DNA of 64,000 nt. It comes from Prevotella sp. (GTDB lineage Bacteria > Bacteroidota > Bacteroidia > Bacteroidales > Dysgonomonadaceae). The notes under the pieces were generated by a model, which had not been told where the DNA came from, did not search any database, and worked only from the letters and a program-made list of their open reading frames with translations. The DNA lies in the NCBI GenBank assembly GCA_031285625.1, contig JAITVV010000095.1, positions 32,001 to 96,000 on the forward strand, in the 5' to 3' direction. Below, piece after piece: positions 284 through 24,903 of this stretch. Numbering within the stretch: position 1 is the first letter of the stretch; each line of letters opens with the position of its first letter. The translations under genes and the position numbers were made by a program.

Positions 284-620
284 TTTTTAGTTTTAAAATT
301 ACTTCCAAATGAGTTAATTGAGCTATGAAAAATGAGCGGTCGGCTATCAATGTGCCACGGATAGAAGTTATTTTAGCACGAATCGCTTCGGATTGCACAA
401 CCGGCTAAAATACAATCTCATAGATAGCATTCAGCTGTGTTTTGCCTCACGAAAAACAGGTAACGGGTAAGTAACGGAAGTCCAACGAGAACAACCTGAT
501 TTTGCGTTTTTCGACCTGAGACAACATCGGACAACCTGTACATATCGGGCTAAATATCAACGGGTTCATCCTTTTTCGCTTGAAATCACTTTTTTGCAGA
601 TTCTTTGATACAAAGTTAGA
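1..620. mobile_element. End of an integrative (mobilizable/conjugative transposon-like) element
   Basis: Integrase oriented into the element, visibly higher GC than sequence after ~600, direct repeats GTAACGG at 460-466 and 471-477; boundary approximate. Confidence 0.65.
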
Positions 621-682
621 AAAAGATATTTTTATCCACTACTTTTGATGTTCTATTTCATTATTCTACTTAACCTTCCAAT

Positions 683-2095
683 ATGATAAGTGATTTCTTT
701 CTGGATAAAATAAAGCAAAATTTTCCTTTTGAGCCTACAAGCCAGCAGCAAATAGCTTTGGAAAAGATTGTTCATTTTCTGTTTTTACAGAAAGAAGAGA
801 CTTTATTTTTATTGCGGGGATATGCCGGTACGGGTAAGTCTTCACTGCTTGGAGCATTGGTAAAGACAATGACTGAGTTTAAACAAAAGACAGTTTTACT
901 GGCACCTACAGGTCGAGCTGCAAAAGTGTTCTCATCTTATGCCAATCATCCGGCCTTTACCATCCACAAGAAAATATACAGGCAACAAAAGTTCGCAGGT
1001 GACTTTGGTAGTTTCGGATTGATGGACAATCTGCATAAAGATACTTTGTTCATTGTCGATGAAGCTTCTATGATCAGCAATAATGGCCTCGACTCTTCAT
1101 TCTTTGGTACCGGAAGATTACTTGACGATCTGATCCATTATATTTATTCAGGCGAAAATTGCCGACTCTTATTAATTGGAGACTCTGCTCAGTTGCCTCC
1201 TGTAATGGAAGAAGATAGTCCTGCCTTGCAGACAGCAATCCTTGAAGGATATGGATTGGAGATACATGAGGCTATGTTGTCCCAGATAGTGCGTCAGGCT
1301 GAGAGTTCGGGTATATTATTCAATGCCACTAATATACGTAATGCCCTCAATGAGGGAGAGACAGAGGCTTACCCCAAACTCAAATTAAACGACTTTTCCG
1401 ATATCGTTCGTATTAGTGGCGAAGATCTGATAGATGAAATATCCTCAGCATACAATCGTGAAGGAATAGAAAATACAATGATTATCTCACGATCTAATAA
1501 ACGATCCAACATATACAATCAAGGTGTGCGCAACCGCATCTTATACAGGGAAGAGGAATTGTCTACCGGAGATATGTTGATGATCACCAAAAACAACTAC
1601 TACTGGACAGAAAATATAGAAGGAATAGATTTCCTTGCCAACGGAGAGATTGTAGAAGTGCTTCGTATCCGTGGCGAGCAGCAGCTTTACGGCTTTCGTT
1701 TCAGGGACGTTTTGGTACGTAGCGTAGACTATGATATCGAACTGGAGATAAAAATACTAATGGACACATTGTATTCGGATGCCGCAGGACTTACGCGTGA
1801 ACGTTCCGAGGAACTGTTTTTGAATGTATTGGAGGATTATGCTGATATCCCAAACAAACCTGCTAAGATGAAAAAATTAAAGGTTGATCCATACTTTAAT
1901 GCTGTTCAGGTAAAGTTTGCATACGCTGTTACCTGCCACAAAGCTCAGGGAGGCGAATGGGATATAGTCTTTCTCGATCTGGGTTATATTTCGGAAGAAC
2001 ATTTAGGTATAGGCTTCTATCGCTGGCTGTATACGGCAATTACCCGTGCAGGAAAGAAATTATATTTGGTAAACCTTCCGGATGAGTTTGTCTGA
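683..2095 (+). CDS. RecD-like ATP-dependent SF1 helicase (exodeoxyribonuclease V alpha-like)
   Basis: Walker A GYAGTGKS, DEASM, GDSAQLPPV, YAVTCHKAQGGEW, YTAITRA motifs. Confidence 0.9.
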   Translation: MISDFFLDKIKQNFPFEPTSQQQIALEKIVHFLFLQKEETLFLLRGYAGTGKSSLLGALVKTMTEFKQKTVLLAPTGRAAKVFSSYANHPAFTIHKKIYRQQKFAGDFGSFGLMDNLHKDTLFIVDEASMISNNGLDSSFFGTGRLLDDLIHYIYSGENCRLLLIGDSAQLPPVMEEDSPALQTAILEGYGLEIHEAMLSQIVRQAESSGILFNATNIRNALNEGETEAYPKLKLNDFSDIVRISGEDLIDEISSAYNREGIENTMIISRSNKRSNIYNQGVRNRILYREEELSTGDMLMITKNNYYWTENIEGIDFLANGEIVEVLRIRGEQQLYGFRFRDVLVRSVDYDIELEIKILMDTLYSDAAGLTRERSEELFLNVLEDYADIPNKPAKMKKLKVDPYFNAVQVKFAYAVTCHKAQGGEWDIVFLDLGYISEEHLGIGFYRWLYTAITRAGKKLYLVNLPDEFV

Positions 2096-3046
2096 TTAAT
2101 TCCCGGAATTAGCCTTAATATAATCCTCTATCTGAAAATCCTTCTTCATTATCGGTTTACCGATCTGTTTAACCACTGTGTTTATCATCAGTTGTTTCTT
2201 ATCTAAAACCAATCTGTCTATAAAGATATTTATTTCATCCAGATTGTCAACCATTGGATCATTGGCTATTTCGTGAGCGGCATCTTCTATTTTGTGAAAG
2301 AAGTATGGATAATTCAGGCTGTCAAATTGTTCTGCAATATGTTTCGATCCATAGAATCCAATATTATACATCTCAATCTTATCATAAGGGACATTGCTAT
2401 CAGCGTCGCCATGAAACATTTGTATAGGTGCAGGCGCATCTTTCCATTTCAGATCGCCATCCATACTGAATATAGCTCCGGCAAACGAGATCACTCCTGC
2501 ATAGTTAAAATCCCCGGGTAGCACCTGGGCAAGTTTTGTCTTGTTACTGATGTTATACGCTCCCTGCAATACAGAGATTGCCCCGGCACTCGATCCATTT
2601 GCTATTATTACATTTTTGTCAATACCCCATTCATCAGCATGTTCTATAACAAATAATGTAGCATCGAACAGATCTTCCACCGCCATTGATATACTATTAT
2701 TCAATGTTACTACAGAACGCATCAGGTCCGTTTGTAGGCCTGCATTCTTCATCCCAAGACGATAATCAATAGATACTACTATGTACCCTTTGTTGACTAG
2801 TTTATTAAAATACTCTACATAGTAATTATCATCCCTTTTCCCATTTGCAAATCCACCACCAAACATAAAAATAATACAAGGTTTAGCTTCATTTACAGTC
2901 TCATTCTTTAAACTATACTTATCAAGCTGCAATGTATTGCCATCCTTCACCGAATAAGTAAATATCTGCTTGTCTATTCCACCATTGGCAGATATACCAA
3001 TACATACAAAAAGAGAAAGAAATAAAATTATCATCTTTGTTCTCAT
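2096..3046 (-). CDS. Secreted alpha/beta-hydrolase (esterase/lipase)
   Basis: Signal peptide, FGGGF oxyanion motif, GSSAG nucleophile elbow, HGDAD. Confidence 0.85.
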   Translation of the reverse strand: MRTKMIILFLSLFVCIGISANGGIDKQIFTYSVKDGNTLQLDKYSLKNETVNEAKPCIIFMFGGGFANGKRDDNYYVEYFNKLVNKGYIVVSIDYRLGMKNAGLQTDLMRSVVTLNNSISMAVEDLFDATLFVIEHADEWGIDKNVIIANGSSAGAISVLQGAYNISNKTKLAQVLPGDFNYAGVISFAGAIFSMDGDLKWKDAPAPIQMFHGDADSNVPYDKIEMYNIGFYGSKHIAEQFDSLNYPYFFHKIEDAAHEIANDPMVDNLDEINIFIDRLVLDKKQLMINTVVKQIGKPIMKKDFQIEDYIKANSGN

Positions 3047-15442: not shown

Positions 15443-15516
15443 CTCTTCCTCTTGGACTTGAACCAAGGACCCTCTGATTAACAGTCAGATGCTCTAACCG
15501 ACTGAGCTAAGGAAGA
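15443..15516 (-). tRNA. tRNA-Asn(GTT)
   Basis: TCTTCCTTAGCTCAGTCGGTTAGAGCATCTGACT-GTT-AATCAGAGGGTCCTTGGTTCAAGTCCAAGAGGAAGAG; cloverleaf, CCA not encoded. Confidence 0.97.
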
Positions 15517-15549: not shown

Positions 15550-15623
15550 CTCTTCCTCTTGGACTTGAACCAAGGACCCTCTGATTAACAGTCAGATGCT
15601 CTAACCGACTGAGCTAAGGAAGA
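15550..15623 (-). tRNA. tRNA-Asn(GTT), identical tandem copy
   Basis: Identical to 15443-15516; TATTTTTG -7 promoter box upstream at ~15647-15654. Confidence 0.97.
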
Positions 15624-20176: not shown

Positions 20177-20312
20177 TATTATTAATATTTAGTATTCGGT
20201 ATATAAACGTTAAAAATAAGTATTTTGTTTATATGATTTCCCGTTGCTAAAATACATACTTTGTACAAGAAGTGCTATAAGGAAAGAGAATAATTGATAT
20301 ATTATGATCTTT

Positions 20313-20424
20313 TATAAAAAAGAAAAAGGTTGTCATCGCGACAACCAATCTTCATTGTTAACCTTAAATCTAATACCATGAAAAACACAGTACAAAGATA
20401 TAACTTTTTTATGTTATACAACAT
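20313..20424. repeat. Direct repeat copy 1 flanking GH78 gene
   Basis: 20313-20410 identical to 23373-23470, then ATGTTATACAACAT after a 1-nt T-run difference. Confidence 0.95.
20316..20388 (-). ncRNA. Putative small RNA, copy 1 (~73 nt)
   Basis: TATCTTTG -7 box at 20393-20400; ends in GGTTGTC-N5-GACAACC hairpin plus TTTTTCTTTTTT; ends approximate. Confidence 0.7.
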
Positions 20425-20478
20425 ATTTGATCGATTTTATTATGTTATTTAGCATATTTTAACCCATTTTCGTTCATA

Positions 20479-23199
20479 TTATTTGTTAATAAGCAGGGTA
20501 TATCTCCCTGAAGGGATTGAGAATGAAGTAGTTCCATCAACTATCTTTTCATCTTTCACGCTTGATTTTTGTCCCTTTTTTAGAGCCATACCTTTAGGTA
20601 ACAATACATCTGCCGAAGTATTAGCAGGTATCTCTATTTTCCATTCAATCTCTTCGTCACCCTTTCTCCATTCACTAGCGATCTTTCCGTATGCAGACTC
20701 ATAAGATGCGTTTATGTAATCTAATCCATCAGGAAATATAGGACTCATATTTATTTTCTTAAATCCCACAATATCTTTATCTGTACTTATTCCTGCCAGG
20801 CATTCATAATACCAGATTAAGAGATCACCAAGCAACATAACATGATTATGAGAATTCATTGCGGGATCAGCAGTATTTCCGTTCCACAGTTCCCAAATAG
20901 TAGTTGCTCCATTTTCAACCATATAGCCCCAACTTGGATAAGTACGATTTGTAGCAATCGTATAAGCAAGATCCGGCCTGCCATATTTTGTTAAACCCCG
21001 CATAAGATATCCAATCCCGACCAATCCTGTACTAACATGACTATTAAAATCATCTTCTGTTTTTCTAATAACATTGGCAAAGACTTTTTCCTGGTATTCA
21101 GGAGGAGTAAGCCCAAGCATCAGCGATAATATATTAGCTGTCACTGTATTATTTCCATATTGCCCTGTTTCTTTATTCAGGTATTTATCATTATATGCAC
21201 TCTTCATCTTGAGTGCGAGATTTTCAAACTCTTTTTGATCTGCAGTATTACCATTCAATGCTGCAAATTTGCTCATAATATGTAACAAACGATAAAAAAA
21301 AGTTGTACTTAGTATAGCACCATCGGTCTTGCGCGAAGGATCTTCCGAATGTATCAACTCCTGCCTTTCGGGAGGCATACACCAGTCACCAAAGTTATCT
21401 TTTGTCAGGATATAATCAGTCATATAATTTGAAGTCATATGATTTATCCATTTCTTCATAGACTCATAATGTTGCCTTACTGGCCGTACATCACCATATT
21501 GCTCATATAACATATTTATAGCGAAAATATATGCAGATGGCCAAGTAACATTTTCGGTACGTATATCCCAATAGTCCGGCGCAACATCCGGAATACTACC
21601 ACCTTCAAGTTGTGCATCCTCGATATCTTGTATCCATTTATCGTATAACAAAGCATTATCAAGCAAGAAGCTTTCTCCATAGCAACCTGTAGCACGGTCT
21701 CCCAACCACCCCATTCTTTCGTCACGCTGTGGACAGTCGGTTGGCATACTCCGGTAGTTTCCTATTATACCCCAATATGCATTATGAAATATTTGATTCA
21801 ACATTGTATTTGAAGAATCGAAAGTACCTACGTCGCTCATTTTATCGTAAATAACCTTTCCTGTGAAGTCTCTCTTCTGAGGTTCATAATTCAAACCTGA
21901 AATTTCGACAAACCGAAATCCATGATACGTGAAACGGGGTTCCCATACAAATTCTCCATTTGCAGCAGGTGTATAAATATCAGTTACTTTTGCCGAACGC
22001 AGATTATCCAGGTAAAGATCACCATTATCTTTCAGGCTCTCGGCAAATACCATTTTTATAGGCTTACCTTTTTCTCCTTTTAGATTAATCGCAAGCCATC
22101 CTACCATATTCTGACCCATATCGAGTATATAAGTTCCTTGCGAAGTTTTAGTTACTGATACAGGTTTGATCTCTTTCATTATCCGGATATTAGGATTACG
22201 CTGTGCGAGGAGTTTTCCACCCGGTTCATCAACGCGTGAGGCTAGTATCCAACTGCTATCATTAAAGCCATTCGTTGCCCATCCTTTAAGTTCTAGATTC
22301 GCATCATACTCTTCACCGTCAAATTCGCTATTGGCCTTGATAGGGCCTTGAGTAGTCATCTTCCATGTTTCATCACTTACTATTGTCGTCTTTTCCCCGT
22401 TTTTTCCTTCCACTTCCAGTTGCACGAGCATTTTAGGATATCCAAAATTACGTACACCTTCGTTGCGCATGCTAAAATAACGCCCATTACCAAGAATTAC
22501 CCCTATTGTATTCTCTCCTTCAGATAGTAAATCTGACACATCATAAGTATTATAATTTACATGTTTTGTATAATCAGTTGCTGTTGGAGCAAAGACATCA
22601 TCCCCTACCTTGTGTCCATTAATATAACATTCGTAAAAACCAAGCCCTGTAATATAAATTTTTGCTTTGGTAATATTTGATGGAATATTGAACTCCTTAC
22701 GCAAATACCGTGCGGCCAGACGGGTATCACCTTCTAAGCGATCACTTTCATTCATAGATTTATCCAATCCAATCCATTTAGCTTTCCAATCATTATCAGT
22801 AAGCGCCATTGTCCAGCTATTGATTTCACTCCATGCTGACTCTCCTTTATTAGTCCATACCTTTACTTTCCAGTAATAGGTCTTACGTGACTCTAAAGGT
22901 TTTCCCTGATATCTAATGAATATAGAATTATCTGAAGATGTTTTACCCGAGTTCCATAACAGTTTTTGCTGATTATTGAGATCAGTTACAGATTCAGCTA
23001 CTATTATTTGGTAAGCACTCTGTCTTATATCGGACATATCAGTATCAATTTGCCACATGAAACGAGGTTGCTGGATATCTATCCCGAATGGATTAACTTT
23101 CATTTCTGTACGCAGCTTTTTAAGATGTATTCCTGATGAAGCATTTATAGCTATACATGATACAAATAAAAAAATGGTGATGTAGATTAATTTTCTCAT
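20479..23199 (-). CDS. GH78 alpha-L-rhamnosidase
   Basis: Signal peptide, DMGQNMVGW, PTDCPQRDERMGWLGD, GATTIWELW, SHNHVMLLG. Confidence 0.93.
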   Translation of the reverse strand: MRKLIYITIFLFVSCIAINASSGIHLKKLRTEMKVNPFGIDIQQPRFMWQIDTDMSDIRQSAYQIIVAESVTDLNNQQKLLWNSGKTSSDNSIFIRYQGKPLESRKTYYWKVKVWTNKGESAWSEINSWTMALTDNDWKAKWIGLDKSMNESDRLEGDTRLAARYLRKEFNIPSNITKAKIYITGLGFYECYINGHKVGDDVFAPTATDYTKHVNYNTYDVSDLLSEGENTIGVILGNGRYFSMRNEGVRNFGYPKMLVQLEVEGKNGEKTTIVSDETWKMTTQGPIKANSEFDGEEYDANLELKGWATNGFNDSSWILASRVDEPGGKLLAQRNPNIRIMKEIKPVSVTKTSQGTYILDMGQNMVGWLAINLKGEKGKPIKMVFAESLKDNGDLYLDNLRSAKVTDIYTPAANGEFVWEPRFTYHGFRFVEISGLNYEPQKRDFTGKVIYDKMSDVGTFDSSNTMLNQIFHNAYWGIIGNYRSMPTDCPQRDERMGWLGDRATGCYGESFLLDNALLYDKWIQDIEDAQLEGGSIPDVAPDYWDIRTENVTWPSAYIFAINMLYEQYGDVRPVRQHYESMKKWINHMTSNYMTDYILTKDNFGDWCMPPERQELIHSEDPSRKTDGAILSTTFFYRLLHIMSKFAALNGNTADQKEFENLALKMKSAYNDKYLNKETGQYGNNTVTANILSLMLGLTPPEYQEKVFANVIRKTEDDFNSHVSTGLVGIGYLMRGLTKYGRPDLAYTIATNRTYPSWGYMVENGATTIWELWNGNTADPAMNSHNHVMLLGDLLIWYYECLAGISTDKDIVGFKKINMSPIFPDGLDYINASYESAYGKIASEWRKGDEEIEWKIEIPANTSADVLLPKGMALKKGQKSSVKDEKIVDGTTSFSIPSGRYTLLINK

Positions 23200-23372
23200 G
23201 GACTTAATAATATAAGGTTATTCTTAAAGGATATCGATTCTTAAACCGAAAGCATAAAAATATCCTTTATTATGTTCAATTATAATGAACTATTTGATAA
23301 GATTAATTGAGAAAATGATTTTTTTCAACTGAAATGTCAAAACATTATTACTTTTTGGTGAAACTGAACTTA

Positions 23373-23485
23373 TATAAAAAAGAAAAAGGTTGTCATCGCG
23401 ACAACCAATCTTCATTGTTAACCTTAAATCTAATACCATGAAAAACACAGTACAAAGATATAACTTTTTTTATGTTATACAACAT
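23373..23485. repeat. Direct repeat copy 2 flanking GH78 gene
   Basis: Offset 3060 bp from copy 1. Confidence 0.95.
23376..23448 (-). ncRNA. Putative small RNA, copy 2 (identical to copy 1)
   Basis: TATCTTTG at 23453-23460; same terminator hairpin and U tract. Confidence 0.7.
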
Positions 23486-23527
23486 GTTTCAATGCTTTTA
23501 TATTTAATTTTAATATAATTTAACTAA

Positions 23528-24784
23528 TTAATCACTATCCGGTAAGTCTTTTTGAGCTTTAATTCCCAGTTCCTTAAGCATTTCGGCTTGACGTATCAGA
23601 TTCCCATTTCCATCTTTCAGTTGAGAAAAAGCTTTTTCGTATGCTTTCTGCGAACGGTCAATATTTTTTCCTACATCCTGCAAAGTTTCTACAAATCCGG
23701 CAAACTTATCATAGAGCGCTGCTCCTCGTTTCGCTATTTCAAGAGCATTGCGGCTCTGGTATTCACGCTTCCATAAGTCAGCTACAACTTTTAGCGATGC
23801 TATCAGATTAGTAGGACTTATCAATAAAATACGCTTTCTGTATGCATAATCCCATAAAGTAGAGTCCAGCTGCATAGCTAAGATGTATGCCGGTTCGTTA
23901 GGTATAAACATCATTACAAAATCCAGGGATTCAATATAATCCTGATATGATTTCGCACTCAGCTCATCAATATGTTGCTTTACAGATATAATATGCTCTT
24001 TCTCTGCTACTATTTTCTGTTCATCTGTCTCTGACTCCACATATCTTACATATGCACTTAAAGACACTTTAGAATCAATAATTATCTTACGTCCACCAGG
24101 ATAAACAATAATAACATCAGGTTGCATATATTTATTCTCATCATTCAATATACGCTTACCATTGATATCTGTCAGAAAATCCTGTGTAAAATACTCCTCC
24201 CCCTTCTTTAATCCCGATTTTTCAAGGATGGATTCAAGTATCATTTCACCCCAGTTACCCTGAATTTTGCTATTTCCTTTCAATGCTTTCGTCAGATTAT
24301 TAGCATCCTCACTTATCTGATTATTTAGTGCGACAAGATCTTTGATACGTTCTTCCAATGAAAAACGCTGTTTTGACTCTTTATCATAGGTTTCTTCTAC
24401 TTTCGCCTTAAACTCTACCAACTTTTCATTCAATGGCTTGAGTATAGCTTCAATATTAGATTTATTTATATCAGTAAAACGAAGAGTCTTTTCTTCGAGA
24501 ATCTGATTAGCCAGAATTTGAAAATCTTTATTCAATTGGTTTCGTGTGTTCAGCAATTCCTCTTGTTGAACATGCAACTGATCTTCTTTTGATTGAACCA
24601 AAGCTTCTAATTGAGCTATTTCACGGATGGCTTTTATTTGAATTTGTTGCAAGGTTTGTTTTTCTGAAGATAGACGATTGATTGTATCCTTTAAATCACC
24701 CTCCTTCTGTTTACTTGACTTTTGAATAAAAGAGATGACAACAATAGCCAGAACCAGCATGATACCAGCATAAACTAATTCCAT
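23528..24784 (-). CDS. rmuC: DNA recombination protein RmuC
   Basis: N-terminal TM, coiled coil, QGNWGEMILE, PDV..IIDSKVSL, DFVMMFIPNE; start at MELVY. Confidence 0.92.
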   Translation of the reverse strand: MELVYAGIMLVLAIVVISFIQKSSKQKEGDLKDTINRLSSEKQTLQQIQIKAIREIAQLEALVQSKEDQLHVQQEELLNTRNQLNKDFQILANQILEEKTLRFTDINKSNIEAILKPLNEKLVEFKAKVEETYDKESKQRFSLEERIKDLVALNNQISEDANNLTKALKGNSKIQGNWGEMILESILEKSGLKKGEEYFTQDFLTDINGKRILNDENKYMQPDVIIVYPGGRKIIIDSKVSLSAYVRYVESETDEQKIVAEKEHIISVKQHIDELSAKSYQDYIESLDFVMMFIPNEPAYILAMQLDSTLWDYAYRKRILLISPTNLIASLKVVADLWKREYQSRNALEIAKRGAALYDKFAGFVETLQDVGKNIDRSQKAYEKAFSQLKDGNGNLIRQAEMLKELGIKAQKDLPDSD

Positions 24785-24903
24785 ATAGATTTGTTTTAAA
24801 AGAAATGGAAAGTTATTTAAAAATATCACCTTTAACAAAATTTGCCAGAAAAAACTTGTGAACATTCGTACTCAAAGATATTTTTACCAAATAATTTCAG
24901 ACA

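Follow-up and report, generated by a model that had tools for sequence, protein, structure and literature searches.

The window analysed here, a stretch of 64,000 nucleotides (nt), raises the question of why a gene for an alpha-L-rhamnosidase of glycoside hydrolase (GH) family 78 is bracketed by two identical copies of a putative small RNA (sRNA) gene whose product is complementary to the start region of the enclosed gene. An earlier note, made from the sequence alone, had proposed that the paralogous sRNAs repress translation of the GH between them. The reading that we regard as highly probable is that the two copies are two of six FopS genes in this genome, that the GH78 mRNA is a plausible target of the pooled FopS RNAs in trans, and that the bracket stems from the history of the locus.

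The whole window was scanned against Rfam 15. Both copies matched RF04319 (BTncRNA_FopS) at 80.1 bits, compared with a gathering cut-off of 56, which settles the family membership that the earlier note had raised and left undecided. FopS was described in Bacteroides thetaiotaomicron, which has 14 FopS genes with canonical promoters (Ruttiger et al. 2025; PMC11697453); the RNAs are reported to be ~65-70 nt long and to combine a 5' seed (R1'), which is single-stranded, with a terminator hairpin (PMC11697453). In the RF04319 alignment the first 31 nt of the window copies were identical to the family consensus, and the published 35-nt FopS consensus, used as a query, was matched at 33 of its 35 nt, the differences lying at positions 12 and 35. 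The conserved 5' seed (R1', nt 1-21) sits in the single-stranded 5' part of the RNA, with an opening energy of 1.7 kcal/mol for the sRNA site. GibS (RF04182) was rejected as the identity of the copies: they reach 48 bits where its cut-off is 115, and its second seed, R2, and longer 3' part are missing. Elsewhere in the window, two minus-strand tRNA genes (15443-15516 and 15550-15623) have the same Rfam score, 71.1 bits, at a spacing of 107 nt, and are probably a tandem duplication.

The anatomy of the copies is that of complete sRNA genes. The minus strand of each copy reads TATCTTTG, which ends 4 nt before the predicted +1 (the G of GTGTTTTTCAT) and represents the canonical Bacteroides-type TAnnTTTG promoter, then GTGTTTTTCATGGTATTAGATTTAAGGTTAACAATGAAGATTGG, a GGTTGTC-GCGAT-GACAACC hairpin and a T tract; the claim of a complete transcription unit of ~73 nt, with a -7 box and a terminator hairpin, was borne out for both copies, and the 73-nt sequence is identical between them. 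As each copy has its own promoter, independent transcription is expected. A sigma-70-type promoter scan of the window was uninformative (21 found, 26.8 expected). The 98-nt identity described before was exact (20313-20410 and 23373-23470). Past it, a 1-nt indel (six T versus seven) is followed by 14 identical nt, ending at 20424 and 23485, and an ungapped repeat search returned 106 nt at 98% identity plus a 64-nt upstream extension at 75%. The upstream part of the repeat unit is also present in a third, dispersed copy (C69a). A coding function for the repeat was rejected: the overlapping open reading frames (ORFs) of 40 and 52 amino acids (aa) differ between the copies by the indel and traverse the terminator. 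Small ORFs are also reported to have been excluded for FopS in B. thetaiotaomicron (PMC11697453).

In the genome that holds the window (4.84 Mb, 96 contigs, 37% G+C), six FopS copies scored above the cut-off: the two in the window, two in tandem 271 nt apart, and two single copies. FopS was found in 24 of 24 genomes searched from the same genus, with two to eight matches in each, and in an order-wide draw 21 of 148 genera gave a match above the cut-off. Copies outside the window include those at C91:14919-14991 and C75:26545-26618; these and others occupy sites conserved in the genus, beside the genes for acetate kinase (399 aa) and ClpB (837-842 aa), which points to vertical inheritance of individual loci.

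Conservation also extends upstream of the RNA. At the rmuC locus, 53 FopS copies were collected from 33 genomes of the genus, and a TAnnTTTG box was present in 47 of them, the other six having a variant ending in TTTA or TTTGC. An inverted repeat, ATGTT-N4-AACAT, which lies over the -35 region of the promoter and mostly takes the form ATGTTnTAnAACAT, was recognisable in nearly all 53 copies when read by eye (uncounted); at least one copy, G008_3, is without it. A GTTAA...TTAA motif ~65-80 nt upstream of +1 was likewise seen by eye in most of the 53 copies, a few distal copies being without it. Both motifs may be the operator of the family's transcription factor.

The earlier note had described the sRNAs as antisense to the GH78 start codon region. 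The complementarity is real, but it is imperfect pairing in trans, with no cis-antisense overlap. The 8-bp and 10-bp helices that had been described were reproduced by RNAduplex, which gave helices of 8, 3, 3 and 10 bp at -22.6 kcal/mol (mRNA 23221-23191). For comparison, FopS was paired with a genome-wide set of 3727 crude start windows, comprising -40 to +30 around the first ATG of non-overlapping ORFs of at least 100 aa. By hybrid energy the GH78 start ranked 22 of 3727 (mean -12.4, standard deviation 3.2 kcal/mol), within the top 0.6%. When opening energies were included its total was -15.3 kcal/mol and its rank 23; this rescoring was limited to the 606 starts able by hybrid energy to beat GH78, of which 603 were scored. 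As to the concern that the site might score no better than random AT-rich starts, GH78 clearly beat the typical one; eight of 446 starts of the form AUGA[AG]AAA, GH78 included, reached -22.6 kcal/mol. As a rough yardstick from another program, the validated B. thetaiotaomicron target site BT_3983 is given in the IntaRNA table of PMC11697453 with an E of -13.15, a hybrid energy of -18.38 and a similar geometry.

The top 20 predicted targets included eight genes of the SusC-like (2), SusD (2) and GH (4) classes, compared with one of 20 random ORFs (Fisher p = 0.02), a make-up by which the predicted regulon resembles the published FopS regulon. Judged by sequence, the GH78 mRNA is a plausible trans target of FopS. 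The best accessibility-corrected pairing in the genome, at -21.3 kcal/mol, was predicted for a DUF6377 gene (C69:99634-101256). At its rmuC locus, another species has a DUF6377 homologue flanked by FopS copies (L094:6408-8036), there without complementarity (-9.9 kcal/mol).

The origin of the bracket was approached by comparing the rmuC locus in the 33 genomes, that of the window included. A FopS gene on the same strand followed rmuC within ~90 nt in 32 of the 33, and in the remaining genome a 466-aa ORF intervenes. Two to four direct FopS copies stood behind rmuC in 14 genomes, and in seven genomes the copies enclosed ORFs of at least 100 aa, whose families are unrelated: GH78 (here); a LigB-like protein and a Cpn60 chaperonin; a zinc peptidase and a DUF4251 protein; a PMT_2 glycosyltransferase; a GFO/IDH/MocA oxidoreductase and a DUF6377 protein, then a TonB-dependent receptor; a 188-aa protein without an assigned family; and a helix-turn-helix (HTH) protein. 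The commonest order was rmuC, one to four FopS copies, an rsmD-like methyltransferase gene, a DUF3822 protein gene and a RecD-like helicase gene, and many species have unrelated genes inserted between these copies or behind them. In the window genome rmuC lies upstream, and the far flank, downstream, consists instead of an MscS-like channel gene and two thioredoxin-like genes. These surroundings are not a polysaccharide-utilisation locus, and GH78 stands alone.

Orthologues of the GH78 protein were present in six relatives at 75-81% identity. No FopS copy adjoined their genes in the DNA fetched, in which the nearest was ~6 kb away (in one relative) and one contig was only 4.7 kb long, and four of the six share another conserved neighbourhood. 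In the upstream regions of the orthologues, boxes of the type TAnnTTTA fall at aligned positions, ~60 nt ahead of the AUG. The upstream homology to the orthologues, this box included, suggests that the GH78 gene arrived with its own promoter region. A contig from another run (3033 nt, 136 differences) has the FopS-GH78-FopS order at ~95.5% identity, and the arrangement is therefore not an assembly artefact of this genome. Similarity over the upstream 83 nt of FopS copies was 0.755 within genomes (24 pairs) versus 0.695 between genomes (1302 pairs; 95th percentile 0.771). Five of the seven gene-bracketing pairs exceeded 0.771, and the window pair stood at 0.75. The higher similarity within genomes fits recent duplication or gene conversion in each lineage, and it would also agree with a turnover of the intervening DNA through recombination between direct FopS units. 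The coordinates of the features at the locus are collected in Table 1.

Table 1 Features of the FopS-GH78-FopS locus and adjoining rmuC (positions are those of the window)
Feature	Positions	Strand	Basis and remarks
FopS sRNA gene beside rmuC	23376..23448	minus	73 nt, +1 = G at 23448; RF04319, model 1-71/71
FopS sRNA gene downstream of the GH78 gene	20316..20388	minus	73 nt, +1 = G at 20388; RF04319, full length
-7 box TATCTTTG (TAnnTTTG type), rmuC-proximal copy	23453..23460	minus	Regex scan
-7 box TATCTTTG, GH78-distal copy	20393..20400	minus	Regex scan
Terminator hairpin followed by TTTTTCTTTT, rmuC-side copy	23388..23406	minus	Terminator scan; minimum free energy fold of the 73-nt RNA
Terminator hairpin, second copy	20328..20346	minus	Terminator scan; first terminator-like site past the GH78 stop codon
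Inverted repeat over the FopS promoter -35 region	23472..23485 (copy 1: 20411-20424)	minus	Read by eye
Whole repeated unit (upstream motifs, promoter, sRNA and terminator), copy 1	20305..20468	minus	Repeat search; partner unit 23365-23529
GH78 alpha-L-rhamnosidase gene	20479..23199	minus	906 aa, N-terminus MRKLIYITIFLFVSC; Pfam Bac_rhamnosid6H 6.9e-107 and four further rhamnosidase domains
Predicted FopS pairing site on the GH78 mRNA	23191..23221	minus	About -22 to +9 around the AUG; RNAduplex with FopS nt 1-31
Candidate promoter of the GH78 gene, imperfect -7 box TATTTTTA	23255..23262	minus	Sole TAnnTTT-type match in the interval from the FopS terminator to the AUG
rmuC, conserved upstream neighbour of the FopS array	23528..24865	minus	Pfam RmuC 1.4e-103

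Sequencing runs of termite-gut and insect-associated origin hold the stretch. Two RNA-seq libraries from a single study gave assembled contigs over the GH78 body, and the summed contig depth of the FopS bins was 13 and ~100 times that of the GH78 body in the two runs, figures in which copies and organisms are summed and which come from contigs without ends; they give a weak hint of transcription. In one RNA-library contig (2782 nt, 99 differences) the sequence extends from the GH78 body past its stop codon by 84 nt, as far as the edge of the repeat at 20395. A terminator scan of the minus strand from 20479 to 20346 returned no terminator-like site besides the FopS hairpin.

Several observations weigh against the favoured reading. 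When the 38 nt upstream of the GH78 start were shuffled with dinucleotide composition preserved, 13 of 1000 shuffles reached -22.6 kcal/mol, and the rank of GH78 is not significant genome-wide. Taken with the eight similar starts among 446, this means that the GH78 site could be due to chance, several such sites being expected in a genome of this size. The sites of the six GH78 orthologues are weaker, at -19.6, -18.3, -15.8, -15.7, -15.3 and -13.7 kcal/mol (rank-equivalents 104 to 1106), and the pairing site is thus only weakly kept. The ORF starts are crude, and RNAduplex with constraint-based opening energies differs from IntaRNA. The RNA-library contigs show neither ends, strand nor level and may hold DNA. 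Finally, three of the nine genes that adjoin FopS copies in the window genome fall within the top 83 starts, which hints at a local link and does not recur in relatives.

That hint bears on the alternative that the two flanking copies exist for the control of the enclosed GH78 gene, and that the bracket was selected for it. The three genes are GH78 itself (rank 22), a choloylglycine-hydrolase-family gene (rank 24) and a sulfatase gene (rank 83), and the recurrence of the FopS-GH78-FopS order in another run also speaks for such a circuit. We nevertheless consider it improbable. The six copies in the genome are near-identical and interchangeable, so that any repression would come in trans from the pool as a whole. 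Six relatives supplied nine enclosed genes for scoring at the rmuC locus; none of these was in the top 1%, their rank-equivalents running from 286 to 3032 of 3727. Four relatives contributed 20 other FopS loci, where one of 40 neighbouring genes came within rank-equivalent 83 (~0.9 expected) and four within the top 5%, and the GH78 orthologues are without an adjoining FopS in the DNA fetched. An enrichment of targets among FopS neighbours was accordingly rejected as a general rule, and adjacency to a FopS gene is no evidence of targeting. The earlier inference of repression thus stands in part: start-codon pairing on glycan mRNAs is the published FopS mechanism, but the dedication of two copies to the gene between them is not retained. 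Our conclusion is that a conserved FopS array took up an insertion or was rearranged, which left the bracket, and that the bracket is no dedicated circuit. The choloylglycine-hydrolase-family gene (bile-salt-hydrolase-like; C75:25259-26341) is convergent to the FopS copy at C75:26545-26618, and its start, ranked 24 of 3727 by hybrid energy, ranks 76 with opening energies; this is curious given the bile-salt induction of FopS in B. thetaiotaomicron.

Two further accounts concern the copies themselves. They could be mainly 3'-end modules that serve as the terminators of rmuC and GH78, with FopS lying in the 3' untranslated region (UTR) of the GH78 mRNA, as in the 3'-UTR-derived FopS-14 (PMC11697453); FopS might then be processed from the GH78 mRNA or fold back on its start region. 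The repeat unit (20468) lies only 10 nt from the GH78 stop codon (20479), and the RNA-library contig that crosses the stop codon reaches 20395. As the stop codon is followed by no other terminator-like site ahead of the FopS hairpin, GH78 transcripts may end there and carry FopS in their 3' UTR. Against this account stand the conserved promoter that each copy possesses and the inability of the contigs to show RNA ends or to exclude DNA. We judge it unlikely as the main explanation, and what it describes would supplement the favoured reading and not replace it. The repeats could also be inert scars of duplication or recombination, or a small mobile repeat without RNA function. The units are indeed ~170 nt long, dispersed in the genome and, at the rmuC locus, in direct orientation with variable DNA between them, and for most bracketing pairs upstream identity is greater within a genome than between genomes. 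Yet the first 50 transcribed nt, compared by eye, are nearly unchanged across the 53 rmuC-locus copies (a few have a substitution); the RmuC proteins of the species concerned share only 69-82% identity with that of the window. The copies match, over its full length, a covariance model derived from sRNAs detected by experiment, and others lie at the conserved sites beside acetate kinase and ClpB. An inert origin is hardly credible in the light of these data.

Returning to the reading of two FopS genes within a six-copy set, transcription of each copy would start from its own TAnnTTTG promoter and stop at an intrinsic terminator of its own. On the model of B. thetaiotaomicron FopS, the invariant single-stranded 5' part of the pooled RNAs would pair with the initiation regions of glycan-utilisation mRNAs and block initiation, and an RRM-type RNA-binding protein may act as antagonist; the genome encodes one RRM_1 protein (82.1 bits). 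The GH78 mRNA would be a plausible member of this regulon, reached in trans like any other target. At the locus itself, the genus has a conserved FopS array immediately behind rmuC, and in this lineage a GH78 gene with its own promoter region probably came between two of its direct copies. A bolder proposal, which we put forward as doubtful, is that the FopS units behind rmuC form a genus-wide insertion and recombination hotspot, in which direct ~170-nt copies anchor the gain and loss of unrelated genes. Genes arriving there would end at a FopS terminator, and FopS may then be part of the 3' UTR of their mRNAs. If true, a regulatory sRNA gene would double as a scaffold for the turnover of gene cassettes.

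The points that are new here are the probable host genus, Dysgonomonas, the GH78 target candidate, an rmuC-linked array that recurs across the genus with differing inserts, and the motifs kept upstream of the promoters. FopS with a nearly unchanged 5' part is thereby placed in a probable insect-gut Dysgonomonas, outside the bile-exposed mammalian-gut Bacteroides, and in a host outside that environment the trigger of FopS expression must differ. The stand-alone GH78 rhamnosidase offers one concrete candidate target. Two small leads are added: the rmuC-linked array with its variable inserts bears on the part of multi-copy sRNA genes in shaping genomes, and the inverted repeat conserved over the promoters of FopS bears on the transcription factor of the family.

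FopS and Dysgonomonas were not found together in any paper of the literature searched. The words rhamnosidase and GH78 are absent from four supplementary files of PMC11697453, and rmuC, tandem, synteny and recombination are absent from its main text. According to that paper, FopS is conserved within the Bacteroidaceae and is induced by bile salts (PMC11697453). In B. thetaiotaomicron, pairing of FopS-10 beside the start codon of a SusC-like transporter mRNA blocks translation, and RbpB, an RRM protein bound by FopS RNAs, relieves the block; in vitro, binding of FopS-10 extended to the 5' regions of another five SusC homologues and of three GHs (PMC11697453). A position of FopS-14 behind rmuC in B. 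thetaiotaomicron was considered, as the transcript length fits, and was rejected: rmuC was found in two of five genomes from other genera, and in neither did a FopS copy adjoin it.

The known system closest to the locus is FopS of B. thetaiotaomicron. The window copies share with it the full-length match to the model, the TAnnTTTG promoter, a single-stranded 5' part followed by a terminator hairpin, a length of ~70 nt and presence in multiple copies. The predicted targets are alike in their many SusC-like, SusD and GH genes and in a pairing that spans the start codon. The genome studied here differs in having six copies and not 14, and its host is probably an insect-gut Dysgonomonas. With GibS the copies have the 5' R1 seed sequence in common, and the first ~30 nt align. 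FopS-14 (BTnc248) resembles the present copies in lying directly behind a protein gene on the same strand, as they do behind rmuC and the GH78 gene, whereas both window copies own a promoter box. The family and its mechanism are already known, and the new points leave the kind of system unchanged.

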